A stretch of DNA of 33,830 nt. It comes from Chiloscyllium plagiosum (lineage: Eukaryota). A model generated the notes under the pieces. That model did no database searches, was not told where the DNA came from, and saw nothing but the letters and a program-made list of their open reading frames with translations. The position numbers were made by a program, and so were the translations under genes. This document shows, in pieces, positions 1,327-28,726 of this stretch. The stretch lies in assembly GCF_004010195.1 (NCBI RefSeq), contig NC_057751.1, positions 3,747,707 through 3,781,536 of the forward strand, given 5' to 3'. Position 1 is the stretch's first letter. Each line of letters begins with the position of its first letter.

Positions 1327-2608
1327 GCATGAAAATGTCTCAAGGTCCAATTCCAGAACCAACAAGCTACTGACAATATTCTGTTGTACCAACAAAGAAG
1401 AAAGAAAGTTAACTCTGCATTCAAACAAGGAATTCAAATTCCACCATCCTCCATTGTTGATTTGAACCTGGGTCCCCAGAATGTAATGTGAAAAATGGTA
1501 CAATTACATAAGATTATTAAAAGAAATGCCTTCAACAAACCACTAAAGGCTGTTAACATTCTTTCCTTGACCACGATTTAAGTAGTTCAGAGTCAGCCAT
1601 TTCCACTTTCCTTTCTGAGAAGTGAAAAGAACTGAAAAATAAAATTAATAACCTGACATTTATTCTACATCTACCGATACTTTTTTGTTCATTATTATTT
1701 GACCACAAGCATGATGCTCTCCTTCTCCAAGTGCACTTTTTAATGGAGCTCCCAAACACACACAGAGTTAAAAAAAAAACGACAACTTGAAAATTTTCAA
1801 GGCTATTTAAAAATACATAAGTCATAAAATATATTGGCAAAAATTCTTCCTCAAGTAAGATACCTGTATGATTTCTGGTCAAATAAACACTTAAGTGATG
1901 AGAACTATGAAAAAGCATGTTAGAGATATGAAGAAGTGACTGCAATTTTAAAGCCTGCAAATGAAACAAACCGATCGAACACTGCTTTGACTGTGAAGTA
2001 TCACAGAACATGTTTCTTATTTACCAAGCAGCACAGAATGTAAATCGAACAAGCAGAACTAACATCTCAAAGATAAATCTTGTTCATTCTTTATGATCAT
2101 CTGAGTCATTGAGCATGAATCATTGTTTCCTCGGCTTGTGGCTTTTCAAGTAAATGATAAATTATACAGTGAACACAAAGCAGGGTGGAAGGGAATGTCT
2201 AGTCTGGACAGGGAGTAGTGGGTGGATATTTGAAGATTAGTCAGGGCAGGCAAAAGAGCAATTAAAATATATTCTGAGACTTACCATGACTTAACAAGTG
2301 CATGCAAATTTGGGTTTTCATATGTTTGTTTTGTGGTCCTTTCTCTCTAGATTGTTTTAAAAGTTCTCCCTCTCTCCCATTCAGCATTTTTGGAGTCATA
2401 TTCTCTTAAAGGGTATTTATAGTTGAAAATTGTATTGTTCTCTCTGATGTTATTGTTACTGGGAATTGGCTATAGAGGAATGCAAGTTAACAGGCAAGAA
2501 CCATAACCAACTGTCCAAACTAGAATGATCTCAGACTTGGTCCTTCAGAATTTTTTGGGCAATTCAGGATGAGTTCAGCTGGGAACTCTTTGATGGTATT
2601 ACAGAACA

Positions 2609-2716
2609 CAGTTGAGAGTTGCTGGGAAAGCAGAGCAGGTCAGGCAGCATCTGAGGAGCAGGAGAGTCGATGTTTTGGGCAGAAGTCCTCCAGCATCTGC
2701 TGTCCTCACTTTCTCC
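2609..2716. mobile_element. 108-bp Penelope-derived mini-element with internal inversion, 12-bp TSD
   Basis: The direct repeat TATTACAGAACA lies at 2597-2608 and 2717-2728. The inner sequence is a minus-strand piece and then a plus-strand piece of the family at 20008-20147. Confidence 0.75.
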
Positions 2717-3204
2717 TATTACAGAACATACTCAGTCTCAAATGGACTTCAAAGGAGAGCCATATCAAGTGGTATTTCACATCAGGCAGGCCAAATCAAA
2801 ATTATTGCATGTTTTTGAAAAATATCACTGTTTATCAAAATAGACATGACAAAATGAGCCAATATTAGGCTATGCCAATTAACCATGCAATTATTGTCAA
2901 TGCTTCCTCACTCACATCTCAGGCTTCTCAAACCAGGGATAAGCATACCTGTCAACTCTATCTTATACAAATTCTCACAATGAATTATGTCACAAAAATG
3001 GACCAAATGGAATTAAGTGTCCCAAATTAGAGCTTCTTAATAGGGATGGAAACATGGCACTGCAAGTAGTTCTCATCTAAATCAGATTCAATTTTCAAAA
3101 CTTGTTCGTAGCTTGAATTAGACAATGCAAAGAATCAATTGAAAAAATAAAATACTTTAAGAACTAATTTTGAGCAACTAGGGGACAGCAAGTTCAGAAT
3201 TCTT

Positions 3205-3361
3205 AAGAATAAAGAATAGGACAGCAGAGAAACAAGACCTACAGCCCACCAAGCCTGTGCAGACACATGATGCCGTTCTGAACTAAGAGTTTTTTGTCTT
3301 TATCTGCTCCATATCCTTTTATTCCCTGCCTATTCATTGATCTGTCAAGATTCTTCTGAAA
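3205..3361 (-). mobile_element. CR1 LINE 3' tail fragment (older subfamily)
   Basis: Resembles CR1 3' ends (acagcagagaaacaagacctacagcccaccaagcctgtgc ... ccatatccttttattccctgcctattcat). Confidence 0.55.
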
Positions 3362-3477
3362 CTAGAAAATAATTTTAAGTTAGAATTAAAAACAGGGATA
3401 TACAAGGAGGAGAACATTTAAGACAAAATCTGAGACACAACTGAATTGATTTTCATTTCAAAATTGGTTTAAAGGTA

Positions 3478-3583
3478 GATATTTTGAATTAACCTATTCT
3501 GATATCTCTGCAGTGGATGGGATTTGAACCCAAGCCTGCAGGTCCAAAGGTACGTACAGCATCACTGTACCACAAGAGTACCC
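3478..3583 (-). mobile_element. Short tRNA-derived SINE (same family as 1232-1326)
   Basis: Minus strand has tggtacagtga (A-box-like) and gggttcaaatccc (B box), with tail atatcagaataggttaattcaaaatatc. Confidence 0.55.
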
Positions 3584-4029
3584 ACTTAATTGACCCACTT
3601 AATTGAACACGTTTCACAATAACTGGCTTAATATCAAAATAACAAAACTACTATCTGGCATTAATTGACAGACACAATCATATTATTGGTTTACTTGTTT
3701 CCACAAGAAGTGATTTAAACCCTGCTCACCAATCAGGATAATGCAGATAGCATTAATGCAGAACAGCTCTGGAACTTAACTGCAAAGACCTCACATGTTT
3801 TGATTTTAATAAGCTGTCCTGAGCTGAGGAGAAAGACACTTGCCAAAAAGTGGCAATCGTATTCTTTGGACTTGAAGGTTAAGCTGCAATGCGCCATCTG
3901 GGGTCAGACTACTATTTTTTCACTTGAATTCTAAGGAGTGAAACTGTTGGAAGGAGAATCAATCAGGGAGCAGAGTTAGGCCAGAAGAAATGTAAAAAAT
4001 TAAACAATTTTGAATCAAATTGAAGTCTG

Positions 4030-4380
4030 AACAACTGCTTCTTCACAACAAACATTCCTGTTTATTTTGGCTTTTGTCCCATTACATATTTGTCAGTTAA
4101 ATTCTTCTGGCCTCTACGTCATCCCAAACAATCCCTTTTATCATTCCTGCCCCTCCTTTCTACCGTCTTTCACTTTTGAAGAAGACTTGTATTCAACTTA
4201 AAACACTGCCTGTGTTTCCATCTGTTGTGAGACCTACTTCATGTCCAGAAGTGAAATAGTGGCAAAATACTGAAAATGCTGGAAACCTGAAACAAGCACA
4301 GTGAATGTTGGAGAAATGCAGCGGGCCTGGCAGCATCAGTGGGGAAAGAAATAGAGTTAATGTTGCAAGTGTAGTATGAC
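4030..4380. mobile_element. Degraded Penelope-type 3' region (+) followed by an opposite-orientation Penelope-derived terminal piece
   Basis: A pyrimidine-rich UTR ends in a decayed hammerhead-like segment (~4172-4215). 4262-4380 matches the aatgctggagaaa-cagcaggtctggcagcatc-agagttaatgtt terminal motif seen at 5260-5392 and 8105-8200. Confidence 0.5.
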
Positions 4381-4385
4381 ACTTA

Positions 4386-5026
4386 CAGTCATTGAGATGA
4401 TCACCGCAGAAACAGACCCTTCGGTCCAACTCGTCCATGCCGACCAGATATCCCAAACCAATCTTGTCCCACCTGCCAGCACATGGCCCATATCCTTCCA
4501 AATCCTTCCTATTCATATACCAATCCAGATGCCTTTTAAATGTTGCAATTGTACCAGCCTCCACCACTTCCTCTGGCAGCTCATTCCATACACTTACCAC
4601 CCACTGCATGAAAAGGTTGCCCCTTAGGTCTCTTTTGTGTCTTTCCCCTTTCACCCTAAAGCTGTACCCTCTACTTCTGGACTCCTCCACCCAGGGAAGA
4701 GACTTTGTCTATTTATCTTACCCAAACCCCTCATGATTTTATAAACCTCAGTAAGGTGAGCCCTCCGATGCTCCAGGGAAAACAGCCCCAGCCTATTCAG
4801 CCTCTCCCTATAGCTCAAATCCTCCAACCCTGGCAACATCCTTGTAAATCTTTTCCAAACCCTTTCGAGTTTCACAATATCTTTCTGATAGAAAGGAGAC
4901 CAGGATTGCACGCAATATTCCAAAAGTAGCCTCACCAATGTCCTGTACAGCCGCAACATGACCTCCCAACTCCTGTACTCAATACTCTGACCAATAAAAG
5001 AAAGCATACCAAACGCCTTCTTCACT
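4386..5026 (-). mobile_element. CR1 LINE, 5'-truncated (RT C-terminus plus 3' tail)
   Basis: ORFs 4651-5025 (KKAFGMLSFIGQSIEYRSWEVMLRLYRTLVRLLLEYCVQSWSP) and 4193-4690 (FMQWVVSVWNELPEEVVEAGTIATFKRHLD) are typical CR1 ORF2 C-terminal peptides. Confidence 0.93.
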
Positions 5027-5257
5027 TTTACTGGAATATTCTGAGGTGCTGCACAATAGCATCATATAACAATGCCATAAAGGATAGATATGGTCAAATG
5101 GTTGAAAACCTGATGAAAGAGATAAGTTTTAAGAAATGTTTTAAACAAGAAAGGGAAGATAGCAAGGAAGAAAGCTGCAGGAAGTGCTCTGACACGGTGA
5201 CAGACAGCAGAACTAAATCAGATTTTCTACATCTGTACTTGCACTGTAATAAAATTA

Positions 5258-5393
5258 AACAAAAGAACAAAGAACTGCAGATGCTACGAATCCAAAGTAA
5301 AGACAGAAATTGCTGGAGAAACTGAGCAGGTCTGGCAGTATCTGTGATGAGAATGTAGAGTCCACATTTTGGATTCAATGACCCTTCTTTCTA
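5258..5393 (-). mobile_element. Penelope-derived mini-element ending at a decayed hammerhead motif
   Basis: Carries the terminal motif agaaattgctggagaaactgagcaggtctggcag. It ends in ggattcaatgacccttctttctagaa, the reverse complement of a degenerate CTGANGA-stem-GAAA region. Confidence 0.6.
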
Positions 5394-6646
5394 GAAATAC
5401 AGAAAACTGAAGTAAGCCATTTAGCCCCTCAGGCCTGCTCCACCATTCAAGAAGCTCTTTGCTGATCTGTGGCTGCCTTGGTCCATATCCTCTGATACTT
5501 GTGCTCCATGAAAAGTGACTGTTTCAAATTTAAGTTTAACAATTCAATAACATCAACCAGCATTTAAGGAAAAGAGTTCCAAACCTCTAGAATCTTCAAG
5601 CAGTTATAGGATCATCAATTAGTGGAAATAGTTTATCTTTATCTACCCTATCTTTCCCTGTTAATATCCTAAAGACCTTGAGTCTTTTACACTACTGGAT
5701 GCGAAAGGCCTAATTTGTTTCATCCCTCCTTATAATTTAATCCTTGAAGCTCAGGTATGATCCTTGTAAACCTGTGTTGAACTCCCGCTCGGGCCAAAAC
5801 ATCCTTTCTGAGGTGTATGCTCAGATCTGCTCATAGTACTCAAGTAGGCACTAACTTGGGTTTTGCAAAACTGCAGCAAAGTTCTGCATCTCTTTCCTCC
5901 AGTCTTTTAGATATGAAAGTCAGCATTCCGTTCGCCTTCTTAACTATTATTTGTATCTGTTTGTGGCATTTTAAAAAAACAATGCACCTGAACCCCCAAA
6001 TCTCATGAGAGATCCATTACACTTAACTTCGTGCCTTCTGAAAAATATGTGATCAATCCTTTTCCAGTCTGAAATGGATAAACATATACTTGCTGATATC
6101 TGCCACAGTTTTGCCCATTCACCTAATCTATCAGTATCCTGTTAATATTTAATGCTGCCATCAGCACTGTCTGCAATGCTGCCCAATTTTATGGTCACGA
6201 GCAATGTTGGATATTTGATTTTTCATGCCATTATCCAAATTGTTAATGAATATTGTGAATAATTGAGGCATTAACACAGATCAACGAGACACCATTTATT
6301 CTGTCTTGTCAAATTGACTTCTTATTCAGAATTCAAACTCCCTGCTTCCAGCCAGTCAAGCAATTTCCTATCCATGTCAGTAATTTACCCCCAATTCCAC
6401 AGGTTTCCACCTTAGCTAACACTCTCTTGCAAAGGACTTGGTCAAAATTCTTCTTGAAATCCTTGTAAACAACATCCATCGACTTTGCACTGTCCACCGT
6501 TGTTGTTACCTCTTCAAAATACTGTTAGATTTATCAGGTATGACATATGCTTCATGAATCCATGCTGGTTCTCCCTGATTAATTGATGTTTTTCAAGTTG
6601 ATCGGTTACTGTATCCCAATTTATCAACTCCAATAACTTCTCCACC

Positions 6647-6755
6647 CTGACTGAAAACAACATATGTTGCAGATTACAGCGGGTCAGGCAGCATCCATGA
6701 AGAGAGAGCAAGCTAACATTTTGAATCTCGATGACTCTTCATCAGAGCACCAGAG
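6647..6755 (-). mobile_element. Penelope-derived mini-element with degenerate minimal hammerhead, inserted in CR1
   Basis: Flanked by cttctccacc (6637-6646) and cttcttcacc (6756-6765). Minus strand 6748-6712 reads gct CTGATGA a gagtc atcga gattc aAAA tg TT agc, a hammerhead core in which GAAA has become AAAA, consistent with CpG decay. Confidence 0.7.
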
Positions 6756-7084
6756 CTTCTTCACCATAGATATCAGACATTGGCAATGGGCTCTCCTTCC
6801 TCTTTTAACACTTGTGCATGGAAGCCACCAAGTCCTGGGGATTTGTCAAACTTTAGTTGCAGTAATTTCTCCATTACTGATGATTCACTTCAGATAATTT
6901 TATTTAGACCTGTTCCTGATGGTCTGTTAACTTCTTTGGGACTTGCGGCAAGATAGCCCCGTTTTCAGCTGTGAAAAATGTAGCAAAATAATTGTTCAGG
7001 ATGTTTGCCATTTCCTCTTGGTCATTGACAATAACGCCAATCTTAGCCTTCAGCGGGTCAACAGCACTCTTAACCAGCTGTTTT

Positions 7085-7240
7085 CCCATAACCTCAGTTA
7101 TCCAAACGTCAATTATCCAAATTTCAGATTATCCGAAAAAGATCTCAAGGTCCCATAAAAAGGATTTCAATTATCCAAACAATCAGTTATCCGAACAAAA
7201 TACTCCTGCCCGTCTCATTCAGATAATCGAGGTTGTTCTG
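7085..7240. mobile_element. Tc1/mariner-pogo (Tigger-like) MITE, left end eroded
   Basis: The right end ttcagataatcgaggttgttctg is followed by TA (7241-7242). The left end aacctcagttatccaaa (from 7090) is its imperfect inverse. TTATCC[A/G]AA is repeated five times on the + strand. The element interrupts the CR1. Confidence 0.65.
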
Positions 7241-7945
7241 TATCTCTTCTTATTGTCTTTTAAGTACCATGCACGTTTTATTTCATAATCTTTTTAGCCT
7301 CTCTTATAAACTGCATTGTGGCCTTTGTATTGGCTTTTTGTATTTGTTCTTTTCTGTGAGATCTGTACTGTTCTTTTTGTTTTTAGAAGGCCTTTCTTTC
7401 AATTTTATGCTGTCCTTTACCTCCTTACATGTCATGGCTGTTTTTCCTTGTGAGGTGCAGCTTCTCCTTCTCATGAGCACAAACTGCCTCTGAATAGTGT
7501 GAAATGTTTTTTTGAACATCCTCGACTGTTCCTTGGCTATTTTACATGTTAACAGAGCTTCCCAGTTTACTATGGACAGTGAATGCCTCCTCCCATTAAA
7601 GTCTGCTTTCCTTAAATCCAAAATTCTAGAGTCTAATCTTTGCTTAGGTCTAACAAGCATGACATGAAACTCCATCATGTTACCATCGTTATTTGACAAA
7701 TGGTCATGAACAACTTGATCACCAATTAAATCAGGCTCATTGATCATTACTAGATTCAATATTGCTTGTCCCCTTGTCACATCCAAGACATGTTATCAGA
7801 GGAAACTATCCTGTACACACTCAAGAAATTCATAATCTTTTTGGCAAGTGCTTGACTGCCTCTCCCAACCTATGCGAAGATTAAAATCCACTATTAATAC
7901 TACTCTGCTTTTGTTACACAGCTGTTTTATTTCCGCTTTTATACA

Positions 7946-8030
7946 ACTGGACCCAAAATGTTGACTCTGCTTTTTCTCCACAGATATTGCCAGACCTACT
8001 GAGTTTCTTCAGCAATTTCTGGTTTTGTTA
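7946..8030 (+). mobile_element. Penelope-derived terminal fragment
   Basis: actggacccaaaatgttgactctgc ... cagatattgccagacctactgagtttcttcagcaatttctg is the reverse-orientation match to the motif at 5260-5392. Confidence 0.6.
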
Positions 8031-8102
8031 TGGTAAAATTAAAACCTTCAAAGATTGTCAAAATTGACCCCACTGGTTCCTTAACGGACTTTCAAGGAAT
8101 CA

Positions 8103-8632
8103 ACACAAAAATGGAACTGCTGGAACAGCAGGTCAGGCAGCCTCTGTGGAGAGAAGTCAGACTTAACATTTTGGTTCCAGTGACCCTTCCTCACAACTCA
8201 TAGCAGCTAAGAAAATGTTGGCCGATGCAGAAGATAGGATGGGGGTGGGTGTAGGCTGTAAACAATAAATGGAGATAGAACCCAAAGAGAGAGAACAACA
8301 CATGGACAGATAGAGGAGCACATAACAACAAGCCGAGGAGAATGACTGGCCATTAATGGGGACTATTAGTGCTAAAGATGGGCTGTGTGTAACAGCAGAC
8401 TATGCAATAACAAGGCCTCGTGTGTGGGGGGGTTGGGGGAAGGATATGATACAAGTTGCGCCAATCCCTAAAATTGTTGAATTCGATATTGAGTCCAGAA
8501 GGCTGCTGAGGTCCCAAGAGGAAAATGAGGTGTTGCTCGTCCAGCTTTGCTGGAGTAGTTCACCAAACCTCAGACACAAATGCTGGCCAGGGAACAAGGT
8601 GGTGTGTTGAAGTGGGCGGGAACTGGAAGCTC
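8103..8632 (-). mobile_element. Penelope-like element 3' end (GIY-YIG C-terminus, UTR, terminal motif)
   Basis: Minus strand ~8550-8467 translates AKLDEQHLIFLLGPQQPSGLNIEFNNFR, the typical E..I..LGT..P.GLN end of Penelope GIY-YIG domains. A decayed hammerhead is at ~8161-8197. Confidence 0.8.
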
Positions 8633-8764
8633 AGACCATATGTTGCAGGCCAAGTATTTATTTAAAGTCTAAGTTCCAGATCTGATTCACCTAGTCAAAC
8701 TAATAGGCTTTAAGCAAAACACACTTTATTCTTACACCACAGTTAAAATACAAACCAAAATAAA

Positions 8765-9190
8765 TTCATGTAAAACTCACTTTTTACATTAGAATCAATT
8801 TAAACATCATGGCATAGACAGAGAACACAGGGGGCTAACACCTTCAACATATTGTCCAGATATCACCATTGCTAACAGCTAACCTGAGAATGCAACTTTT
8901 TAAAAAAAGGTTTTGTGATTTACACATGAAAGAACTGAAACTATCATGGTATTCAAACAGATGAAAGACTTAACAGACAATCAATTTTTAATGTATAACT
9001 TCAGTGACATCACACTGTAAATTTTTGCTATAAATTCTGTGTGTTAGGATTGAGCCCTCCACTATCACCTGATGAAGGAGCAATGCTCCGAAAGCTAGTG
9101 TGCTTCCAATTAAACCTGTTGGACTATAACCTGGTGTTGTGTGATTTTTAACTTTGCACACCCCAGTCCAACACCGGCATCTCCAAATCA
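8765..9190 (+). mobile_element. Penelope-like element 3' terminal region (pLTR), 5'-truncated
   Basis: Homologous in inverse orientation to 12256-12560, which is linked to a GIY-YIG ORF. It ends ...ccccagtccaacaccggcatctccaaatca and is flanked by caaaataaa at 8756-8764 and 9189-9197. Confidence 0.85.
9066..9100 (+). ncRNA. Minimal type I hammerhead ribozyme motif of a Penelope-like element
   Basis: cac-CTGATGA-a-ggagc-aat-gctcc-GAAA-gc-TA-gtg. Both catalytic boxes are intact, with a 5-bp stem II, cac/gtg stem I and palindromic AGCT in place of stem III. Cleavage is predicted after A9097. Confidence 0.8.
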
Positions 9191-9512
9191 AAATAAAAAC
9201 CAATTGGTATAACTTCAAGTCAATCAAAATAATGAACAAGTGAATATTTATTATTCAATTACTCCTCATGAACTGTTCCAATATAGTAGCCTCCTATAAA
9301 TACACCCTTGCCAAAGGCAAACTCAGCAAAACCAATTTGCTCACTTGCTTTCTACTTCAGTCCAGGAGAAGGAACACCAACAGAATGAATCCAGCAGCAC
9401 AGCAAAATCTCATGCTTTTGCAACGACAAAGAGAGCTATATCTAGCAGCTTCAACTCCAAAATTCCAACTTCAACAACGGCAGCAAAACTAAAACCCTAG
9501 GTCTGTGTGAGT

Positions 9513-10541
9513 CAGATTTAGGACCATTCAGTGCAGCCATTTTGGCGCGAGTGATTTGGCGCGGCCTGTTTGGCGCAACCTATTTTGCCACAGACACATT
9601 TAGGCGCAGAACTATTTTGGCACAGATATATGTAGTCATCAACAAAACAGTAAAATTATTAAATGGGTAGTTTCCAGTAGTTTGTAGTTATTATTAAAAT
9701 AATTCATCATCAAAGAAGAACAACTGTAGAGGGAACTTTACAAGTGATTAACGAGTGCCTAGAAAATTTGTCGGAAGCTTGCAAAGGAACAATGCCGAAC
9801 AACAGAGTGCTGATGAAAATGGTTCGTGGGACAAGGAAAGAAATTGCTGCTTACCCAGTAAATCCAAGAAATTTAGAAGAACGTGTAATTCCAGATAGCT
9901 TTAAAACATATTCTGTGAATGAATATAATAAAGAACAATCTTTACAAGCTGACAGCGGAAGCACCATCTGCAGAATTCTTATATTTGGAAGAAAAAGGAA
10001 TGCCGAGTTTCTGAAACAATCAAAAAAGTTATATATTGATGAAACATTCAAAATTTTCCCACCCCTATTTTCACAAGATTATGTTATTTTAGGGGGAATG
10101 CATAAAGATGTGTTCCCACTGTTGTATGTTTTACTCCCACATAAGTTACAAACAACATATAATAAATTATTTGAAATTATTCTGGAAATACAGCCTGAAT
10201 GCTGCCCTGACATTATCAACTGTGACTTTGAACTTGTACATTGCGTAGCAGAGCACGATATTCCGTTGAAATGAAAGAAAATCAGGAAATTTAATGGGTT
10301 ATATTTTCTTTTTTTTAGAAATTTTGAGGAACCACGGTTAGGAGTGGACTAATCACAGACTAAATGCAGTTGATACACAAATAACTACAAACTACTGGAA
10401 ACTACCCATTTAATAATTCTACTATTATGTTGATTTTCATTGATGTCTACCATATATCTGCGCCAAAATAGTTCTGCGCCGAAAAATAGGCTGTGCCAAA
10501 CAGGCCGCGCCAAAATGGCTGCGCCGAATGGTCCCACTCTG
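9513..10541 (+). mobile_element. Mutator-like (MULE) DNA transposon, internally deleted non-autonomous copy
   Basis: Long imperfect TIRs (~9513-9692 and ~10380-10541) include a perfect 39-bp inverted match (9654-9692 vs 10380-10418). The direct repeat GTGTGAGT(C) lies at 9505-9512/13 and 10542-10549/50. An internal MULE transposase fragment is present. Confidence 0.88.
9744..10274 (+). pseudogene. MULE (DDE) transposase fragment, 176 aa open frame, lacking the N-terminal domain and the C-terminal catalytic Glu region
   Basis: RILIFG ... LYIDETFKIFPPLFSQDYVI ... VFPLLYVLLPHKLQTTYNKLF ... PDIINCDFE matches the MULE-domain pattern (DGTF.. P..F.Q.Y.. PL.Y.LL..K...Y.. DFE). Similarity stops just after DFE. 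Confidence 0.85.
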
Positions 10542-10704
10542 GTGTGAGTCTGATTCCATCCACTCATGCTTCTTTCGTCTCAATTAAAAACTACCCAAAG
10601 CTGTTTACTTTCCATGGAGCAGCCACCTCAGCACCATGTTTACAACACACCTCTTCAAGAGGAACAGGACAGATAAATCCCTCTTAAAGGCACATCTCAT
10701 CATA

Positions 10705-10903: not shown

Positions 10904-12031
10904 CAAATGGAGTTTAATTTAGATAAATATGCAGGACCTATAAACCTAATGGTAAGGTCCTGGGGAGTGTTGCTGAACAAAGAGACCTTGAAGTGCAGAT
11001 TCATAGTTCCTTGAAAGTAGAGTCGCAGGTAGATAGGATAGTGAAGAGAATTAGATTAGATATATCAGATTCCCTACAGTGTGGAAAAAAGCCCTTCAGC
11101 CCAACAAGTCCACACCAACCCTCTGAAGAGCAACCCACCCAAACCCATTTACCTCTAACTGATGTACCTAACACTATGGGCAATTTAGTATGGCCAAGTC
11201 ACCTAATCTGTACATCTTTTGATTGTGGGAGGAAACCGGAGCACCCAGAGGAAAGCCACGCAGACATGGGGAGAATGTGCAAACACCACACGGAAAGTCA
11301 CCCAAGATGGGAATCGAATCAGGGTCCCTGGTGCTGTGAGGCAGCAGTGCTAACCACTGAGCCACGGTGAGGCGTTTGGTATGCTTTTCTTTACTGGACA
11401 GAGTATTGAGTACAGGAGTTGAGAGGTCATGTTGCGGCTGTACAGGACATTGGTCAGGCCACGTTTTGAATGTTGCGTGCAATTCCTATCTCCCTCTTAT
11501 GGGAAGGATGTTGTGAAACTTGAAAGGGTTCAGAAAAGATTTACAAGGATGTTGCAAGGGTTGGAGGATTTGAGCAATAGGGAGAGACTGAATCTCTCTG
11601 TTTCCCTGGGGCTGTTTTCCCTGAAACATTGCATTTTGAGGGTGACCTTATTGAGATTTATAAAACCATGAGGGGCATGGATAGGGTAAAGTAGACAATG
11701 TCGTTTCCCAGGGGTGGGGGAGTCTGGAACTAGAGGCTAGGGTAGAGACTAGAGGTTTAGGGTAAGAGGGGAAAAAGTTAAAAGGGACCGAGTGGGCAAC
11801 TTTTTCATGCAGAGGGTGGTGCATCTATGGAATGAGCTGCCAGAGGAAGTGGTGGAGGCTGGTACAATTATAACATTTAAAACGTATCTGGATGGGTATA
11901 TGAATAGGAAGGGTTGAGAGGCATATGGGCCAAGAGCTGGCAAATGGGACTAGATTGGATTAGGATATCTGAATGTCATGGACAGGTTGGACAAAAGGGT
12001 CTGGTTCCATGCTGTACATCTCTATGACTCT
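10904..12031 (+). mobile_element. CR1 LINE 3' part, interrupted by an HE1 SINE
   Basis: Peptides QIHSSLKVESQVDRIVK (10993) and LYRTLVRPRFECCVQFLSPSYGKDVVKLERVQKRFTRML (11429) are present. The 3' tail ends ctgtacatctctatgactct. Confidence 0.92.
11048..11369 (-). mobile_element. HE1-type (V-SINE) SINE nested in CR1
   Basis: Matches 915-1227, with A box TGGCTCAGTGG and B box GATTCGATTCC. Removing it restores the CR1 sequence gtgaaga|aggcgtttgg. Confidence 0.92.
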
Positions 12032-12343
12032 CAATGAGAACAGGTCAGTTTGTAGGTTGCACTTCTCCCATGGTACAATTAACATTCACCCAAATGCTCC
12101 CATGTTCCTTTGATGTTGTAGAAAACTCTGAAGGTTGCCAAATTAAATTGGAAAAGTATACATACATAAGAAAATATTACTTTAAATTCAGTATCTGCTT
12201 TTGAAACAAGGCAATCAGGGCCTTGAAACAAAGCTTGTATTATCATTTCTAAGCATGATTTGGAGGTGCTGATGTTGGACTGGGGTGTACAAAATTAAAC
12301 ATCACACAACACGAGGTTATAGTCCAACAGGTTTACTTGGAAG

Positions 12344-12378
12344 CACTAGCTTTCGGAGCACTGCTCTTTCATCAGGTG
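12344..12378 (-). ncRNA. Minimal hammerhead ribozyme motif (second copy)
   Basis: Minus strand reads cac-CTGATGA-a-agagc-agt-gctcc-GAAA-gc-TA-gtg. The core boxes are intact, but the first pair of stem II is mismatched (A-C). Confidence 0.7.
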
Positions 12379-12560
12379 GTTGTGGAGTATAAGATTCTAA
12401 GATACAGAATTTATTCCCGAAGTTTACAGAGTGATGTAACTGAAATTATATATTGAAAAAGACCTGGATTGTTTGTTTCTTCTCTCATCTTTCATGTTGG
12501 TTTCAGTTCTTTTATATGTAAATTCCAGAATGTTCTTAAAGTTACATTCTCAAGTGAACT

Positions 12561-12927
12561 TAAAATTATGAGGGGCATGGATAGGGTAAATAAGCAAAGT
12601 CTTTTCTCTGGGGTCGGGGAGTCCAGAACAAGAGGGCATAGGTTTAGGGTGAGAGGGGAAAGATATAAAAGAGATGTAAGGGGCAACGTTTTCACGCAGA
12701 GGGTGGTGTGTGTATGGAATGAGATGCCAGAGGAAGTGGTGGAGGCTAGTACAATTGCAACATTTAAGAGGCATTTGGATGGGTATATGAACAGGAAGGG
12801 TTTGGATGGATATGGGCCAGATGCTGGCAGGTGGGACTAGATTGAGTTGGGATATCTGGTCGGCATGGACAGGTTGGACTGAAGAGTCTGTTTCCATGCA
12901 ATACATCTCGATAACACTATGACTATC
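12561..12927 (+). mobile_element. CR1 LINE 3' tail nested in a Penelope element
   Basis: Encodes KIMRGMDRVNKQSLFSGVGESRTRGHRFRVRG...WNEMPEEVVEASTIATFKRHLD. Penelope sequence resumes at ~12931. Confidence 0.9.
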
Positions 12928-13008
12928 ACTAATAGGTGCCATGTTGCCCAGATAATGCAGTGAGGGTGTGAGGTGCCCTGTGCCCTAATGTTCAGACTGA
13001 TTCTAATG

Positions 13009-13217
13009 TGGGTGTGTGTGGGGGGGGGGGGGGGGGGGGGGGGGAGGAGTGTCTGTGAGAGAGTGTGGGTATGTGTATGAGTGTAAAGGGGTAGAGGTCT
13101 ATAAGAGGGTGCGTGTGTGAGTGTGGGTGTGTATGTGTGAGCATATGAGAGACAGCTTGTGTAAGAGAGATGGCCTGTATGAGTGTATCTGTCAGTGGGA
13201 GTGAGTGTGTGTGTGGT
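13009..13217. repeat. GT-rich low-complexity tract including a 25-nt poly-G run (13020-13044)
   Basis: Directly visible. It lies in the 3' UTR of the Penelope element. Confidence 0.85.
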
Positions 13218-14249
13218 CACCTGTAGTGTGACATGAACCCAATGTCCTGGTTGAGGCCATCCCCATGGGTACCAAACTTGGCTATCAGCCTCTGCTCGGC
13301 CACTTTGCGTTGTTGCCTATCCTGAAGTCCGACTTGGAGGATGGTCACCCGAAGATCCGAGGTTGAATCTCCCGGACTGCTAAAGTGTTCTCCAACTGGG
13401 AGGAAACACTCCTGTGTGTTGATTGTTGTGCGGTGTCCATTCATCCATCGCCATATCCTCTGCTCGGTCTCACCAATATACCATGCCTCAGGGCATTCTT
13501 GCCTGCAGCAAGATAGTACTTGTTCGAAGCAAGTTGATATTTATTCACATTATAATGATATGGCCAAATCAGGTTAAAAAAAATGTGCACAGGTTACAAT
13601 AGAGTGTTACGTCTATGTTTGATGGCTACAATTTAATTCATGGGAGGTGTCAGTAAAATGTGCACAATGGTTAACAGCTTGCACAAACCCAACAGATTTG
13701 TGACAAACTGAATTTGAGAGTCTTTTCTACTTTCCTCAATCGCGGTTTCAGGACAGTTACAGCTGAGATCACATATTTGACTAACATTACTTAATTAATG
13801 TTACTCCTGTGACCCAACCAAATTAGTTCTAGGGTTTTCCCTGCTTCATGTCACCCGAAGTTCAATTTACGCCTTTATCACTAGTCATGCTTGTGGATTT
13901 GAGGTGCTTTTCACTTGGCATCTCAATTCTCCACCTTGCTTCTGTGCTGACCCTTCTGATATTGACAATTTTCCAATGAAGTTCAACATGTGCTCCAAGT
14001 ACAGCATCTCACCTTTCAACGGTGTTCTCCAGATTTCAGAACTCACAGTGAGAGTCCAAAAATTTTAGTTCAAAAAATCTTTTTCCATTTGTTTCATAGT
14101 TCTTTTGGAACTAGAGTTTTGTCTAATTTTTTCCTTTATTCCTTCACATTGCATGAGGGTTACCATTTTTGTGACATGAAGTCTGAAATTTCATCTCTCC
14201 TGCCCTTTTTATAGCTTCCAATTCCCTTATTTTAGCTTCCCTTCTGTTC

Positions 14250-14407
14250 CTCTTCAATCTCCCCTCTTCTTTTTGCTGAAAACTTTCTGCACTTGTAATA
14301 TTCCTCAATTCTGAAATGCTAACTTTTCTCTTTCCACAAGTGCTATCAAACCTGTTAAGTATTTCCAGTTTCTCCTTCTGTTTTAGATTTCCAGTATCCA
14401 TAGTATT
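14250..14407 (+). mobile_element. Degraded Penelope-derived terminal fragment
   Basis: ctgaaatgctaacttttctctttccacaagtgctatcaaacctgttaagtatttccag ... agatttccagtatccatagtatt matches the terminal motif family at 7946-8030. Confidence 0.5.
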
Positions 14408-19249: not shown

Positions 19250-19478
19250 TAGTTCTTGGAGTTAAGGGGATCAAAAGGTATGAGCAGAAAGCAGGAACTA
19301 GGTACTAAGTTAGAGAAAACAAAGTCTTGCTGATGCTGGAGATCTGCAAAAAGCAAAATCAGAAATTGCTGGAGAAACTCAACAGGTTTGAGTTGGATGA
19401 TCAGCCAAAATTCATAGTGAACGGTGGAACAGGCTCAAAGGACAAAATGCCAATTCCTGCTCCTAATTTCTGTTTCTA
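19250..19478 (+). mobile_element. CR1 3' tail (older subfamily) interrupted by a Penelope-derived fragment (~19314-19388)
   Basis: aaggggatcaaaaggtatgagcagaaagcaggaac ... gagttggatgatcagcca ... ttcctgctcctaatttc. The insert carries agaaattgctggagaaactcaacagg. Confidence 0.65.
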
Positions 19479-20007: not shown

Positions 20008-20147
20008 TTCCTGATTAAGGTATTTTTGCCCGATCCTTTTGCACGAAACAACTCTCCTGCTCTTCAGATGCTGCCTGACCTGCTGTGTTTTTCCAGCACC
20101 ACACTCTTGACTCTAATCTCCAATATCTACAGTCCTCACTTTTGCCT
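20008..20147 (+). mobile_element. 140-bp Penelope-derived mini-element starting at a decayed hammerhead, 14-bp TSD
   Basis: Flanked by atccaaaggacaaa (19994-20007) and atctaaaggacaaa (20148-20161). It begins ttcCTGATTAagg...cGAAAc and continues ctcctgctcttcagatgctgcctgacctgctg. Confidence 0.75.
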
Positions 20148-20285: not shown

Positions 20286-20487
20286 AAAAACAGAAACAGC
20301 TGAAGAAATGCAGCAGGTCTGGTAACAGTTGTGGAGTGAAAGCAGAATCAACATTTTAGGTCAAGCAACCCTTCTCCATTGATTCTGCTTTGAATCCATT
20401 GATGCAGCCAGACGTTACTGAGTTTCTCCAGCTCGTTCTGTTTTTGTTTCAGATTTTCAGCATCAGTAATTCATTATTTTTTGGAGA
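20286..20487. mobile_element. Fold-back (inverted pair) Penelope-derived mini-element, 10-bp TSD
   Basis: GTCATCAAAC lies at 20276-20285 and 20488-20497. The arms ~20282-20351 and ~20379-20449 are imperfect inverted repeats. Confidence 0.75.
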
Positions 20488-21282: not shown

Positions 21283-21565
21283 GGACAAAAAGTCAAGGTT
21301 GACATTTTAATGCAGCGCTGAGGGAAAATTACATTTGTGTAGTGCTGCCTTTTAGATGTGCTAAATGGAAGGCTCAGCCACCTGCTCAGATCAATGCAAA
21401 AACTCTCCTTGAAGTCAAATAAAAATTATTCATCTTCAAACAGTATTACTGAAAAGAGGAGCTCTGGCTGGGTCCTCATTTGTTGCTTTTGGGACCTTAT
21501 GGTAAATTGCTTTCAGACATTCCAAGGACATAAAGGCATCACATGACAGAAAATTATTTCTTTTT
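21283..21565 (+). mobile_element. Degraded Deu-SINE (SacSINE1/AmnSINE1-like)
   Basis: aggttgacattttaatgcagcgctgaggga ... gtgctgccttttagatg ... ttgcttttgggaccttat ... taaaggcatc resembles the recalled Deu-domain and L2-type tail. Confidence 0.55.
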
Positions 21566-21578
21566 CCTTTGGTCCATT

Positions 21579-21924
21579 TAGAGTCATAGGGTCATAGAGA
21601 TGTACAGCACAGAAACAGACCCTTCGGTCCAACTCATCCATGCTGACCAGATATCCGAAATTAATTTAGTCCCATTTTCCAGCATTTGGCCCCTACTTCT
21701 TTAAACATTTCCTATTCATGTACCCATTCAGATGCCTTTTAAATATTGTAAATGTCTCACCACTTCCTCTGGCAGCTCATTCCACAGACACACAACGCTC
21801 TGCGTGAAAATGTTGCCCCTAAGGTCCCTTTTAAATCTTTTCCCTCTCACCCTACACTGATGCCCTTCTACTTCTGGCCTCCCTCACAACAGGGAAAATA
21901 CCTTGTTTATTTACCCTATCCATG
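21579..21924 (-). mobile_element. CR1 LINE 3' tail
   Basis: agagtcatagggtcatagagatgtacagcacagaaacagacccttcggtccaactc ... tttaccctatccatg is the inverse of the tail at 12561-12927. Confidence 0.9.
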
Positions 21925-24692
21925 TCGATTAATAAAATATGAAAACTGGTGGTGCTAAGTACTTGCATAGGACTGGGAACCCATAATAATGTCGAATGAC
22001 AGAACATATTGGCTATCACAACTTGGGTAATATCATTGTCCCCTGGAAAAGGCACAAATAAGCACACTGACCTAATCAAATATGTACTCTAAAGAAGAAC
22101 TTTACAACAGGTCCAAGTGATTGCTATCTTGGAGAAGAAAAGAGCAAAGTGCAACGCAACTGATTTAATTGTATTCATCATACAATCTATAGTTGAATAT
22201 TTGCTGTGCACCCCACCTTCTTTGCAGGAAAAACAAGGAATAACAGCTAATAATTGGTACTCATTACACATTTTTTTGGCATCCACCAGAGAAGCAGATG
22301 GATGGATATTTCAATTCTCGCTCTACCAAGCAGAATAAGGACAAAGGCTGCCAACTCTCATGTCATTTAGTATATGGTTAGAAAGAATAATTAATTAACC
22401 ATTTCATGTGTTGAGTTACAGCAACATATAGACAATGTAACACAAGCAACAGTACAACTTGAGAGATGGGCTGGATGAAAATAGTTCCACGCAAAGTTTT
22501 TGATAGCTTTCCCTTTTAAGAATAAAATTCCTGTTCATAGGATACTGAAGCAAGTAACTACAGAAGCTATGGATATACGAGGAGTAATTTTAAAAAAACT
22601 CTAGATTCTGGAAATGTCCTGAGAGTTGGAAAACTGCCAATTTAACAGCTAAATTGAAAAAGTGAAGGAGTCAAAAAAGTAGAGGCCATTTAGCTTAATG
22701 CTGTTGTTGGGAAAATGTTCAAGTCTATTGGTTGTAATAGCAGAACATTTAAAAGTACACGATATGATCATGCAGTCAGGGTCATAGAGACGTACAGCAC
22801 GAAAACAGACCCTTCAGTCCAACTTGTCCATGCCGTCCAGATATCCCAACCCAATCCAGTCCCACCTGCCAGCACCTGGCCCATATCCCTCCAAACCCTT
22901 CCCATTCATATACCCATCCAGATGACTTTTTAATGTTGCAATCAGACTACCCTCTATCACTTCCTCTGGCAGCTCATTCCAGACATGTATCACCCTCTGC
23001 GTGAAGAAGCTTGCCTTAGGTCTCTTTTATATCTTTCCCCTCTCACCCTAAACCTATGCTGTCTAGTTCTGGACTCCCTCACCCCAGGGAAGAGACTTTG
23101 TCTATTTATCCTATCCATGCCCCTCATGATTTTATAAACCTCTATAAAGTCACCCCTCAGCCTCTGACACTTCAGGGAAAACAGCCCCAGCCTATTCAAC
23201 GTCTCCCTATAGCTCAAATCCTCCAACCCTGGCAACATCCTTGTAAATCATTTCTGAACCCTGACAAGTTTCACAACATCCTTCCGATAGGAAGGAGACC
23301 AGAATTGCACGCAATATTCCAACAGTGGCCTCACCAATGTCCTGTACACCCGCAACATGACCTCCCAACTTCTGGACTCAATACACTGACCAATAAAGGA
23401 AAGCATACCAAATGCCTTCTTCACTATGCTATCTACCTGCGACTCTACTTTCAAGGAGCTCTGAACCTGCACTCCAAGGGCTCTTTACTCAGCAACATTC
23501 CCTCGGACCTTACCATTAAGTGTATACGTCCTGCTAAGATTTGCTTTCCCAAAATGCAGCATCTCGCATTTATCTAAATTGAACACCATCTGCCACCTCT
23601 CAGCCCATTAGCCAATCTGATCAAGATCCTGTTGTAATCTGAGGTAACCTTCTTCGCTGTCCACTATACCTGCAATTTTAGTATCATCTGCAAATTTAGT
23701 AACTCAACCTCTTGTCCTCACATCCAAATCATTTAAATAGATGATGGAAAGTAGTGTAGCGAGCACTGATCCTTGTGGCACTCCACTGGTCACAGGCCTC
23801 CAGTATGAAAAACGACCCTCCACCACCACCCTCTGTCTTCTATATTTGAGCCAGTTCTGTATCCAAATGGCTAGTTCTCTCTGTATACCGTGAAATCTAA
23901 CCTTCCTAACTAGTCTCCCATGGGGAACCTTGTCAAACGCCTTACTGAAGTCCATATAGATCATGTCTACCACTCTGCCCTCATCAATCTTCTTTGTGAC
24001 TTCTTCAAAAAACTCAAATCAAGTTTATGAAATATGATTTCCCATGCACAAAGTGATGTTGACTATCCCTAATCAGTCCTTGCCTTTCCAAATACATGTA
24101 CATCCTGGTCCTCAGGATTCCCTCCAACAAATTGCCCACCACTAACATTAGGCTCACTGGTCTATAGTTCCCTGGCTTGTCCTTACCAACTTTCTTAAAC
24201 ATTGCCACCATGTTAGCCAACGTCCAGTCTTCCGGCACCTCACCTGTGACTGTCGATGATAAAAATACCTCAGCAAGGGGTCCAGGAATCACTTGTCTAG
24301 CTTCCCACAAAGTTCTAGGGTACACCTGATCAGGTCCTGGGGATTTATCCACTTCTATGCATTTCAAGACATCCAGCACTTCCTCCTCTATAATATGGAC
24401 ATTTTTCAAGATGTCACCATCTATTTCACTGCATTCTATATCTCCCATGTCCTTTTCCACAGTAAATACTAATGCAAAATACTCATTTAGTATCTCCCCC
24501 ACCTCCTGCGGCTCCACACAAAGGCCGCCTTGCTGATCTTTGAGGGGCCCTATTCTCTCCCTAGTTACCCTTTTGTCCTTAATATATTTGTAAAAATCCT
24601 TTGGATTCTCCCTAACACTACTTGCCAAAGTTGCTTCATGTCTCCTTTTTGCTCCCCTGATTTCCCTCAAGTATACTCTACTGCCTTTATAC

Positions 24693-26057
24693 CAGCACGT
24701 TTTAAGAAGATTTGTAGCTCAGGTTGCGGTTCTCACTGAGCTGGAAGGTTCATTTTCGGATGTTTCATCACCCTACTAGGTAACATCTTCACTGACCCTC
24801 CAGACGAAACACTGATGTTTCCTGCTTTCTATTTATATGATTGGGTTTATTTGGTTTGGGGCTGTCATTTCCTGGGGTGATGTCATTTCCTATTGCGATG
24901 TCATTTCCTGTTCTTTATCTCAGGGGGTGGTAAATGGGATCCAAGTCAATGTGTTTGTTGACAGAGTTCCAGTTGGAATGCCATGCTTCTAGGAGTTCTC
25001 AAGCGTGTCTATGTTTGGCTTGTCCTAGGATGGATGTGTTGTCCCAGTCGAACTGGTGTCCTTCTTTATCTGTATGTAAGGATACTAGTGAGAGTGGATC
25101 ATGATGTTTTATGGCAAGTTGATGTTCATATATACTGGTAGCAAGTCTTCTGCCTGTTTATCCAATGTAGTGTTTGTCCAATACAGTAGAGCGAACAGCC
25201 AATGAGGAACTTCAAACCAGGGTCTGCAGGAAAACACATACAGACCAAATATTGAACTACAGAAGCAATCATCCCATCATCCGCAGACGAAGCTGCATTA
25301 GAACATTATTTCAATGAGCCACTACACACTGCAGCACAGAGGAACTACGCAGAGCAGAGAAAAATCATCTGTACAGTGTATTCAAAAAGAATGGGTACCC
25401 AATGTACAGTCAGCCAATTTCTCAGCAACAAATCCAAACTAGCAGACAAAGTGCATCCAGAAGCCCTAGCCACTCTCTCCTACATCAAAGACATCCCAGA
25501 AATGACTGCCAGACTCCTCAGACCCTTTGGCATCATGGTAGCCCACAAATCCACCAACACAGTAAATCATCAGCTAATGAACTTTAAAGACCCTACACAG
25601 ACAACAAGAAAATTTATGTCATTTACAAAATACCGTGCAAGAACCTTAACAAACACTACATTGGATAAACAGGCAGAAAACTAGCTACCAGGATACGTGA
25701 ACATCAACTAACCACAAAACGACATGACCCACTCTCACTCGTATCCTTCCATACAGATAAGAAAGGACCACTTCGACCGGAACAACACATCTATCCTCGA
25801 ACAGGCCAAACAGAGACACACATGAGAATTCCTAGAAGCATGGCATTCCAACTAGAACTCCATCAACAAACACATTGACTTGGACCCCACTTACCACCCT
25901 CTGAGAAAAAGAACAGGAAATGACATCACCATAGGAAATTACATCACCATCCCAAGGAAATCCCAAACATATAAATAGAAAGCAGGAATCAACAGCAGTG
26001 CTTTGTCCGGAGGCTCGCTGAAGATGTTACCGAGTAGAGTGACGAAAACCTTCCAGC
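24693..26057 (+). mobile_element. Penelope-like element: 5'-truncated sense copy (~25181-26057) preceded by an inverted copy of its 3' end (~24697-25177), 10-bp TSD
   Basis: GCCTTTATAC lies at 24683-24692 and 26058-26067. Decayed peptides are TDQILNYRSNHP, LATLSYIKDIPEMTARLLRPFGIMVAHK, IYKIPCK..NKHYIG*TGRKLATRIREH (GIY-YIG) and EFLEAWHS. 24735-25177 is the reverse complement of ~25649-26057. Confidence 0.92.
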
Positions 26058-26200
26058 GCCTTTATACTCTTCTCAGGGTTCACTCGATCTATCCTGTGCA
26101 GTGCTTTGTCCGGAGGATCGCTGAAGATGTTACCGAGTAGAGTGACGAAAACCTTCCAGCGCCTTTATACTCTTCTCAGGTTTCACTCGATCTATCCTGT
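25995..26200 (+). repeat. Tandem duplication, 2 x 103 bp, 2 mismatches
   Basis: Unit 1 is 25995-26097 and unit 2 is 26098-26200. The differences are ggctcg/ggatcg and cagggttc/caggtttc. Confidence 0.95.
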
Positions 26201-27556
26201 CCATACCTGACATATGCTTTCTTCTTTTTCTTAACCAAACTTTCAATTTCTTTCGTCATCCAGCATCCCCTATACCTACCAGCCTTTACTTTCACCCTAA
26301 CAGGAATAGACTGTCTCTGGACTCTCAATATCTCATTTTTGAAGACTTCCCATTTTCCAGCCATCCCTTTACTGAACATCTGCCTCCATTCAGTTTTGAA
26401 ATTCTTACCTGATACTGCCAAAATTGGCCTTTCTCCAATTTAGAACTTCAACTTTTAGATTTGGTCTGTCTTCTTCCATCACTATTTTCAAACTCATAGA
26501 ATTATGGTCGCTGGCCCCAAAGTGCTCCACCACTGACACCACAATCACCTGCCCTGCCTTATTTCCCAAGAGTAGGTCATGTTTTGCACCTTCTCTAGAA
26601 GGTACATCCACACATTGAATCAGAATTTTTTCTTCAGTATGCCTGACAAATTTACAAGAATTATTTAAGGAGGTAACATGTAGGACAGACAACGGTTGGG
26701 GGGGAGGGGTGGGGAATTTAGAGGATTTTGATTTTCAGAAGACTTTTGACAAAGGTACCACATATTACACTACTTAATAATATCAGCCAATGGTTTTGTG
26801 GATAGGCTATATTAGCATGGATAGAGGCTAACTAATAGAAGATATGAGTTGGGAGAAAGGGGGCATTTTCAGGCTGGCAACCTGTTTTCATGGAGTGCCA
26901 CAGGGATAAGTACTGGTGCCACAATTATTTACAATATATATTCATGTTTTGGATGAGGAAAGTCATTGTACTGTTGACAAGTTTGTAGATGACACAAAAA
27001 TAAGTGGGAACGCAAGTGGTCAGGAAGACACAAAGAGGGATGACAGACAAATTAACTGAGTGGGCAAAAACTTGGCATTATGGAATATCATGTGGGAAAA
27101 TGAGAGGTTTTGCACTATGGCAGGTAGAATACAGGAAGTTCAGCGGGTATTAGTGAAGACAAATACATTGTTGGCCTTTATTTCAAGTAAAGAAATAAGA
27201 AAGTGTTGCTTGAACTATGCAAGGCACTGGTCAGACCACAGTTGAAATGTTGTGAATGGTTTTGGGCCCCTTATTTAGGGAAACATATACTGGCACAGTT
27301 ATGAGAAGGTTCATTCAGCCTTTACCAGATATGGAGAGGCTGCCTTTTGAGGAGATGTTGAGTAGGTTGGACTTGTATTCATTGGAATTTAGAGGAATGA
27401 GAAGTGACTGCAGTGACACATAACAGATTGTAAGGAGACTTGACAGGGTAGATGTGGAGAGATTGTTTTACTTTGTGGCTGGGTCTTGGATTTATTCTCA
27501 GAATAAAGGGTCATCCAGTTAAGTCAGAGATTAGCAGGATTTTTTTCTTTCAGAGA

Positions 27557-27938
27557 ACAAAATAGAATAGAGTGGAATAATAATTTATTGTCACTTCTAT
27601 CTCCACAAAAAGATACAGAAAAAAATCTTTAAGTTGCCATTCTCTCGTGCCTCCATTAATAGCAGAAGTCATATATTAAAAAACATTAATCCACCTTTGA
27701 GGAAAAGACAGGACCAATACTCTCCACCACTGCAGATTGAATCCAGGGCCATTGGAATCTCAGGCCAGACCAGCACATTGTCAAATCCACTGAAGCAGAG
27801 CACCACTTTGTTGGGCCCACGAGCACATGACTGCAACGGCAACTAGGAACGAATCAGACTGCTTTTACCACTGCAGCAGCCACTCAAAACATCCTTCATT
27901 CACCAACCAGCCGACTCTGAAGCCACTTCCTATGCTGC
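27557..27938 (-). mobile_element. Unclassified 382-bp retroposon-like insertion, 6-bp TSD
   Basis: CAGAGA lies at 27551-27556 and 27939-27944, and the host CR1 resumes exactly. The minus strand ends gtgacAATAAAttattattccactctattctatttt (polyA signal plus simple-repeat tail). Confidence 0.65.
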
Positions 27939-28389
27939 CAGAGAGTCGTTAATCTGTGGAATTCTTCACAGAGGGCTGTTGAGCATATTTAAGGCTGAGA
28001 TGGACAAATTTTATGAATTCGAGATAGAATCAAGGATTATCAGGAAAAGGCAGGAAAGTGGAGTTGAGGATGATCAAATCAGGCTTTATCTCATTGAAAG
28101 ACAGAGCAAACTCAATGGGCTGAATGGCTATTTCAACTCATATGTCTTATGCTCCAAAGACTTAGGGTATTATGTTCTAATCTTGTTGGCAGAAATAGGA
28201 TTTTAAGAAAGAGAGAAATTACAAATATGTGGATATCACTTTTTAAGGAACTCTGACAGCCTTTGCTGATTTCTTTACACAAGATCCATTTCAATTTTTT
28301 TTACTTTTAATTTCTTTCCTTTGGGAAATATCAGGAATAGTAACAGAGTTAAGCAGCCCAAATTCGACAGCAATGTTGATTGTAAGGTT

Positions 28390-28563
28390 TATGATATGGA
28401 GGTGCCAGTGTTGGATTGAGGTGGACAAAGTTAAAAATCACACAACACCAGGTTACAGTCCGACAGGTTTATTTGGAAGTACAAGCTTTTGGATTGCTGC
28501 TCCTTCGCTTGTACCTCCAAATAACCCTGTTGGACTATAACCTGGTGTGGTGTGATTTTTAAC
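28390..28563. mobile_element. Fold-back Penelope pLTR mini-element, 11-bp TSD
   Basis: 57-bp inverted arms at 28430-28486 and 28507-28563 (5 mismatches) share sequence with 9094-9152. Flanks are attgtaaggtt (28379-28389) and attggaaggtt (28564-28574). Confidence 0.85.
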
Positions 28564-28726
28564 ATTGGAAGGTTCAGCACTTAAATCTACCCTAAGCCAG
28601 AAATTAATTAATACATGAAGGCCTGCTTCATTTTTATATTTTAGTTGATCACACTGCTAAATTTGTTAAAGCCTTTATTTCAAAGAAACAGATGGTAACT
28701 GTTCATTGAGCACAAAAGCGCAAGTA

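Follow-up and report, generated by a model that had tools for sequence, protein, structure and literature searches.

The 33,830-nt stretch of Chiloscyllium plagiosum contig NC_057751.1 analysed here (hereafter the window, whose positions serve as coordinates throughout) is rich in what we take to be CR1 long interspersed elements (LINEs), V-type short interspersed elements (SINEs) and pieces of Penelope-like elements (PLEs). The subject of this analysis is a group of six short insertions, hereafter stubs and named by their first positions (2609, 5258, 6647, 20008, 20286 and 28390), which the original prediction had listed and which are present as described, all of them being 3′ ends of PLEs. 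Target-site duplications (TSDs) of 10–14 bp were found for five of the six, and 5258 lacks a convincing one (best candidate pair 11/15), as had also been claimed. Five stubs belong to family 1, a loose family of terminal modules, and 28390 belongs to family 2; presumably the families behind all six are Neptune-like. Leave-one-out profiles, built from the other copies, recovered each of the five family-1 elements (six arms, with 20286 counted as two) at E-values of 2.9e-7 to 3.2e-24, and 28390 aligns with the long copies 8759 and 12256 at 83–86%. A census confirmed 14 PLE insertions in the window, one censored by a CR1 tail and 13 uncensored (Table 1). Two further candidates picked by eye, 4170-4245 and 33405-33452, failed the leave-one-out profiles and are excluded from the counts; the latter is nested in a CR1 and breaks off at a GAAAC-like motif.

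The stubs are insertion debris of a known class of element and not a new mobile family cut by a ribozyme. Our reading, to which we assign a probability of about 0.7, is that they arose by ordinary PLE insertion, with its truncation, inverted arm and tail, combined with a probable hotspot of breakpoints at the front edge of the hammerhead ribozyme close to the PLE terminus. Several of the features by which endonuclease-bearing (EN+) PLEs are recognised are found here, namely a remnant of a GIY-YIG endonuclease in a longer relative, a predicted minimal type I hammerhead, a tail of 30–40 nt, and an inverted arm together with a TSD.

Type I hammerheads cleave themselves just after GAAA and a short stem III. 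An intact minimal core of this type is present in the long family-2 copy 8759, and a second intact CTGATGA box, stem II and GAAA lie at 12375-12347 in the other long copy of that family. Hammerhead numbering follows the established consensus, cleavage positions are predicted from sequence, and offsets are counted from C3, the first C of the CUGANGA box; Rfam gave no hammerhead match in the window. None of the six stubs has an intact catalytic core today. G12 is changed to A in five and the sixth has lost G8; the G12 changes are consistent with CpG decay, and three of the six missed part of the box from the outset. Hammerhead folds are weak in all six cases tested (z −0.3 to −1.4). The possibility that the edge of the hammerhead holds a conserved splice acceptor, as described for Penelope of Drosophila virilis (Cervera and de la Pena 2014, PMC4209133), was considered and rejected for family 2, which has no AG within 15 nt of C3.

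The 5′-most ends of the stubs fall between C3−10 and C3+7 (Table 1), and in all six they sit 21–38 nt upstream of the predicted scissile bond. It follows that self-cleavage, which had been proposed to set the unit length, did not do so, and that the stubs, reaching upstream of the cut, were copied from uncleaved RNA. This bears directly on a retrozyme-like origin, in which self-cleavage would set the length of the unit and cleaved pieces or circles would be copied back into DNA. The shorter-reaching arms of 20286 and 28390 do begin close to the predicted cut, at distances of 2 and 4 nt on its upstream side, as such an origin might lead one to expect, but these starts match the prediction from pairing in the stem register, no stub lies in a head-to-tail tandem array with complete hammerheads, and none runs cut-to-cut; a retrozyme-like origin is thus very improbable. 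The other proposal, that reverse transcriptase (RT) stalls at the folded RNA hammerhead and then drops off, is hardly credible. The ends do lie in or beside the fold, and that of 7950-8030 falls in the loop of stem II, but a block should presumably strand the ends where RT enters the fold, on its 3′ side. None of the six is found there, all lying beyond most or all of a fold that is itself weak.

Three of the six stubs (2609, 20286 and 28390) are inverted, each with one tail-bearing and one tail-less arm. The mirror axis of 20286 lies at 20365.0, against a stem II centre of 20364.5, and that of 28390 at 28496.5, against 28497; the corresponding hairpins have z values of −5.0 and −12.7. Axes within 0.5 nt of the centre of stem II make the self-complementarity of the ribozyme the likely site of joining. 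In 2609 and 20286 the core is located on the tail-less arm, which excludes fold-back or self-priming of a single cDNA and requires either two cDNAs or later inversion of a loop. Thus, the clustering at the hammerhead and the strand switches within the ribozyme that had been reported are real, while the list on which they were based was selective and held no intact cores.

Table 1. PLE insertions of the window, with the hammerhead and poly(A) features of the reference copy; TSD, target-site duplication (matching positions in brackets)
Feature	Position	Strand	5′ end relative to C3	TSD	Details
Head-to-head stub, family 1	2609..2716	mixed	+7 (inverted arm)	2597-2608/2717-2728 (12/12)	tail-less inverted arm 2609-2689 (−), to base of stem II; tail piece of 27-29 nt (+)
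Direct stub with tail, family 1	5258..5393	−	+3 to about −4		5′ end at decayed CUGANGA box
Direct tail-less stub, family 1	6647..6755	−	−10	6637-6646/6756-6765 (9/10)	CTGATGA at 6745-6739
Direct stub with tail, family 1	20008..20147	+	−3	19994-20007/20148-20161 (13/14)	box CTGATTA 20011-20017, lacking G8; stem II with what looks by eye like a short internal duplication
Palindromic insertion, family 1	20286..20484	both	+1 (inverted arm)	20273-20285/20485-20497 (12/13)	tail-less arm 20286-20378 (−) with hammerhead core; tail-bearing arm 20379-20484 (+)
Palindromic insertion, family 2	28390..28563	both	+5 (tail-bearing arm)	28379-28389/28564-28574 (10/11)	tail-bearing arm 28390-28506 (−) with stem II; tail-less arm 28507-28563 (+)
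Tail-less stub, not on original list	7950..8030	+	about +13		5′ end in stem II loop; no clear TSD
Stub, not on original list	19317..19390	−			ends about 30 nt downstream of scissile bond
Old PLE end	4266..4379	−			adjoins CR1 3′ tail at hammerhead; 5′ end censored
Old PLE end	14304..14406	+			upstream homology not above shuffles
Long tail-less copy, family 1	8101..8658	−			crosses hammerhead into decayed C-terminus of reading frame
Long copy, family 2 (reference)	8759..9189	+		8745-8758/9190-9203 (13/14)	
Minimal type I hammerhead, intact core	9066..9100	+			stem I arm 9066-9068, CTGATGA 9069-9075, stem II 9077-9089, GAAA 9090-9093, predicted cut after 9097
Poly(A) signal and site	9109..9129	+			hexamer ATTAAA 9109-9114; tails after 9126-9129 in RNA reads
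Long copy, family 2	12256..13522	−		(8/9)	GIY-YIG endonuclease remnant; interrupted by CR1 piece
Long head-to-head insertion, third family	24693..26057	mixed		(10/10)	strand switch in reading frame near 25178

Across the census, seven of the 13 uncensored insertions end at C3−10 to C3+13, these being the six listed stubs and 7950-8030. Within the hammerhead span as defined beforehand the count is six of 13, for which chance gives P ~0.002 under an exponential null of lengths (the lengths being estimated by hand). The window counts alone are suggestive, not decisive.

Further evidence came from sequences aligned, at 80% likeness, to the family-2 copy 8740-9220 as reference. These comprised 96,747 and 85,321 contigs from the DNA runs X1 and X13, each of a different organism, 4,259 raw single-cell poly(A) reads (X21) and 11,690 contigs from what is probably an RNA run (X18). 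Two 3′ termini, 34–38 nt apart, dominate the loose ends listed in three runs, one at 9190 (1880 contigs in X1, 1863 in X13 and 257 in X18) and one at 9152-9156 (620 + 962, 835 + 961 and 91, respectively). Among the best 15 of 145 joints, 13 are opposite-strand (strand-switch) joints, and in six of these 13 one side falls on the 5′ edge of stem I (9064-9066), with partners at 9028, 9099, 9107, 9111 and 9127 (17 contigs in X1, 17 in X13 and two in X18); of the others, six touch the terminus and one lies elsewhere. Every listed hammerhead joint occurs in 1–6 contigs per run, at roughly the depth of a single copy; this is consistent with joints that form independently time and again, not with copies amplified from a master. 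X18 also has a 5′ loose end at 9065, in 18 contigs, with a consensus agreement of 0.41. Five listed strand-switch joints between 9146-9155 and 9189-9190, in at most 23 contigs per run, link the tail-less end to the full terminus; they are probably 3′-to-3′ junctions, formed by insertion at an existing element end or by repeated inverted units.

The same alignments touch again on the retrozyme-like origin. One listed joint has its partner at 9099, next to the predicted cut, and 718 and 666 loose ends at 9100 (agreement 0.64–0.66) could mask true ends, a 2-nt insertion in the reference at the cut site meaning that a minor class ending there could be hidden. Against this, the consensus of the 9100 loose ends is the element's own sequence, and X21 reads cross 9097 without a pile of ends; the loose ends at this position, and likewise those at 9111, were ascribed to artefacts of the alignment. 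No unit-length joint of a circular RNA was found among the best 15 of 145, a poly(A) library and contigs being ill-suited to show one.

A number of observations weigh against a hotspot at the hammerhead edge. Within the window, five of the 13 uncensored insertions clearly end outside the hammerhead: 19317-19390 stops about 30 nt past the cut, and four long insertions (8101, which crosses the hammerhead tail-less, 8759, 12256 and 24693) extend 300–800 nt upstream of it. The stub ends are themselves scattered over ~24 nt, which is broader than a single start site, and the count of six in 13 weakens to P 0.08 if a quarter of the ends is permitted in the span and to P 0.06 when set against an equal span downstream. 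Of 145 joints and 1477 loose ends, the best 15 and 24, respectively, underlie the alignment figures, the X1 counts are incomplete, and only family 2, that is one of the six stubs, is covered. For each DNA run six loose-end rows are listed, and neither set includes 9065. Many copies deviate from the reference at 9063, 9065, 9098-9099 and 9110, so that clipping may pool nearby breakpoints; the joint data give opposition of strands, not head-to-head orientation; and the ~6-fold rise of X1 contig depth from 9012-9028 to 9114-9130 is inflated by subfamilies with other upstream sequence. No piles of read starts or ends are listed in X21, a poly(A) single-cell library that is unlikely to reveal 5′ ends. 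Finally, the start site of D. virilis Penelope lies ~120 nt upstream of its hammerhead according to PMC2377424 and PMC4209133.

Some of these points favour ordinary random 5′ truncation. On that explanation, the cluster would be an effect of ascertainment, the hammerhead lying 90–130 nt from the terminus, close to the shortest recognisable length, and the homology of old subfamilies fading upstream of it; the four long copies and the shorter stub, the P values of 0.06–0.08 under lenient nulls, and the absence of 9065 from the top loose-end rows of the DNA runs, where mismatches at 9063 and 9065 can create clipped ends, all speak for it. However, five of the six boundaries are set by TSDs or by the opposite arm and not by fading homology, two palindrome axes fall within 0.5 nt of stem II, and the same edge recurs among the listed joints of the DNA runs of two organisms. 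Random truncation is accordingly unlikely, and the breakpoints are probably linked to the hammerhead rather than scattered at random.

The RNA data also bear on the 3′ side of the element. In X21, 456 reads are tailed after 9126 and 546 after 9129, making 1002 of the 4259 aligned reads, and the tails begin 12–15 nt beyond the hexamer, ahead of a GU-rich stretch. T9110 is kept by most of the DNA-run depth in its bin, and an A variant (AATAAA) is common. Equivalent hexamer sites exist at 28473-28468 and 12337-12332, and no hexamer was found in the four family-1 and family-3 ends tested. The poly(A) RNAs of family 2 thus extend across the hammerhead but stop short of both RT start sites, which makes them unlikely templates for insertion. 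A step in X21 depth at 9046-9079 was discarded as evidence of a start site, since it is explained by read length back from the poly(A) site.

How might such insertions arise? On the reading preferred here, ordinary endonuclease-bearing PLEs would produce each stub at the moment of insertion, from one or two cDNAs copied from an uncleaved template RNA, and the cDNA would often end at the 5′ edge of the hammerhead, ~120–140 nt from the terminus. The likeliest cause of this edge, if a little short of an even chance, is initiation of the template RNA at this point, driven by a promoter internal to the pseudo-long terminal repeat (pLTR); next, and tentatively, the cDNA copy of stems I and II may fold or pair and so end synthesis. 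The near-palindromic stems of the hammerhead would then pair two antisense cDNAs, leading to head-to-head joining with the mirror axis on stem II. An internal promoter in the pLTR is known for D. virilis Penelope (PMC2377424). Work on the Anolis element PAc, a Poseidon PLE, reports that both target strands are cut and extended in vitro, that two internal RT start sites bound the tail and uncleaved RNA is used, and that RNA sequencing showed no ends at the cut site and cleavage is dispensable for insertion (Frangieh et al. 2024, PMC11167929). The dispensability of cleavage also counts against a retrozyme-like origin. PAc resembles the stubs in the two RT starts that bound the tail, in the extension of both strands and in the uncleaved template, and the portion of the study available does not address cDNA ends in vivo.

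The longer insertions of the window agree with an endonuclease-bearing source and set a limit on the role of the hammerhead. The family-2 frame 13217-13537 has a GIY-YIG cluster as its top match (score 0.95, with the family on 41% of members), and a Pfam scan of its peptide gave no match. For family 1, just a decayed C-terminus of the open reading frame (ORF) is visible in the long copy, a protein-cluster search with the third-family frame 25256-25684 gave no useful match, and no RT core was identified among the PLE pieces of the window. The third-family insertion 24693-26057, at ~1.4 kb, is built on the same plan as the inverted stubs, with head-to-head arms; its strand switch lies in the ORF, far from its hammerheads, so that the hammerhead is not the sole switch point. 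At 25995-26200 two 103-bp tandem units, 98% alike, span the 3′ end of this PLE insertion and its CR1 flank, each with a CUGANGA box, stem II and GAAA and without the cut-site region; the duplication is local, though it might pass for a retrozyme dimer.

If the RNA did start at the hammerhead, the stubs might in principle form a self-propagating, non-autonomous SINE-like family, transcribed by RNA polymerase II from their own promoter and re-mobilised in trans by PLE proteins. A stub beginning at the RNA start would retain everything downstream, including both RT start sites, and the promoter of D. virilis Penelope is indeed internal (PMC2377424). Non-autonomous PLEs (MRC1) and trans-mobilisation through pLTRs have been published (Craig et al. 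2021, PMC8557442; Arkhipova et al. 2013, PMC3846280), and 20008 groups as sister to the 2609 arm (87.7% alike, support 99/98). Such a family is nevertheless decidedly unlikely. The six stubs have six different structures, the listed hammerhead joints are at about single-copy depth, the poly(A) site in use at 9126-9129 would cut family-2 RNA before the RT start sites, and the long copy 8101 is 71–80% like several stubs, which equals the likeness of stub to stub. In a tree of 11 window rows, one of the eight inner branches was supported. There is also no unrelated head, the stubs aligning to the PLE terminus within ~10 nt of their 5′ ends, and Rfam found no tRNA-, 7SL- or 5S-type head. As for a shared 5′ end, offsets in the window range from −10 to +13, and 9064-9066 recurs among the listed joints, where clipping is possible. 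The discrete SINE- or retrozyme-like class of the original prediction therefore gives way to the published PLE pattern of arm and tail, with no stub in tandem. A bolder version, which we regard as doubtful, combines these elements: PLE RNA would start at the front edge of the hammerhead, and solo stubs would be complete mini-transcription units (a promoter and both RT starts) from which further stubs arise in trans, making them a SINE-like class transcribed by Pol II. The main legacy of the hammerhead in the genome would then be structural, through stem pairing that joins cDNAs, with self-cleavage playing no part.

Comparison with known systems points to ordinary PLE insertion as the common ground. 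Insertions of EN+ PLEs are described as a 5′-truncated copy with an adjoining inverted arm, an optional tail of 30–40 nt and a TSD (PMC8557442; PMC3846280), and those of the window share with them the head-to-head arms, the tail on one arm, the TSDs of 10–14 bp and a palindrome at the inverted junction. Here, by contrast, whole insertions measure only 108–200 bp, and it is the hammerhead itself that forms the palindrome at the junction; the available parts of these two accounts do not tie breakpoints to the hammerhead. The stubs are also like the solo PLE hammerheads of metazoans in having a minimal type I core that lacks a true stem III. Those hammerheads, as far as the accessible text of PMC4209133 goes, are mostly single and dispersed, are ascribed to truncated PLEs and include opposite-strand pairs 100–700 bp apart; unlike here, the 5′ ends of solo copies are not mapped there relative to the motif. 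The non-LTR retrozymes of metazoans are, by definition, units in tandem whose hammerheads are complete and which give rise to circular RNA (PMC7761336; Li et al., bioRxiv 10.64898/2026.07.22.740005). They share with the stubs a PLE pLTR origin, type I hammerheads and dispersed 'monomers', whereas the six stubs are solo or head-to-head, not cut-to-cut, and three are without part of the core. A literature search, in which subscription papers were thinly covered, returned no paper that maps PLE breakpoints to the hammerhead. Pattern scans of viral and genome contig collections gave 0 matches, and 119 metagenome loci were set aside as chance matches of an overly short pattern, four of them having alignments of at least 30 nt to the window (the longest 54).

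Some other elements of the window stand apart from the PLEs. A DNA-transposon-like element with terminal inverted repeats occupies 9520-10545 and contains a 197-aa frame (9681-10274) for a putative transposase of Mutator-like elements (MULE), a Pfam scan of this peptide giving no match. The short element at 7085-7240, which has internal repeats of 15–16 nt, presumably resembles a Tc1/mariner-type miniature inverted-repeat transposable element (MITE). Two related SINE-like copies at 920-1230 and 11050-11365, 76–86% alike in pieces, are taken to be of the V-SINE type.

The in vivo role of the PLE hammerhead is stated to be unknown (PMC7761336; PMC8557442). If breakpoints pile up at its 5′ edge and junctions use its stems, the stubs would mark the likely start of the RNA and the hammerhead would have a non-catalytic role in joining cDNAs. 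By virtue of their hexamer, many genomic copies of family 2 could in addition serve as portable poly(A) sites.

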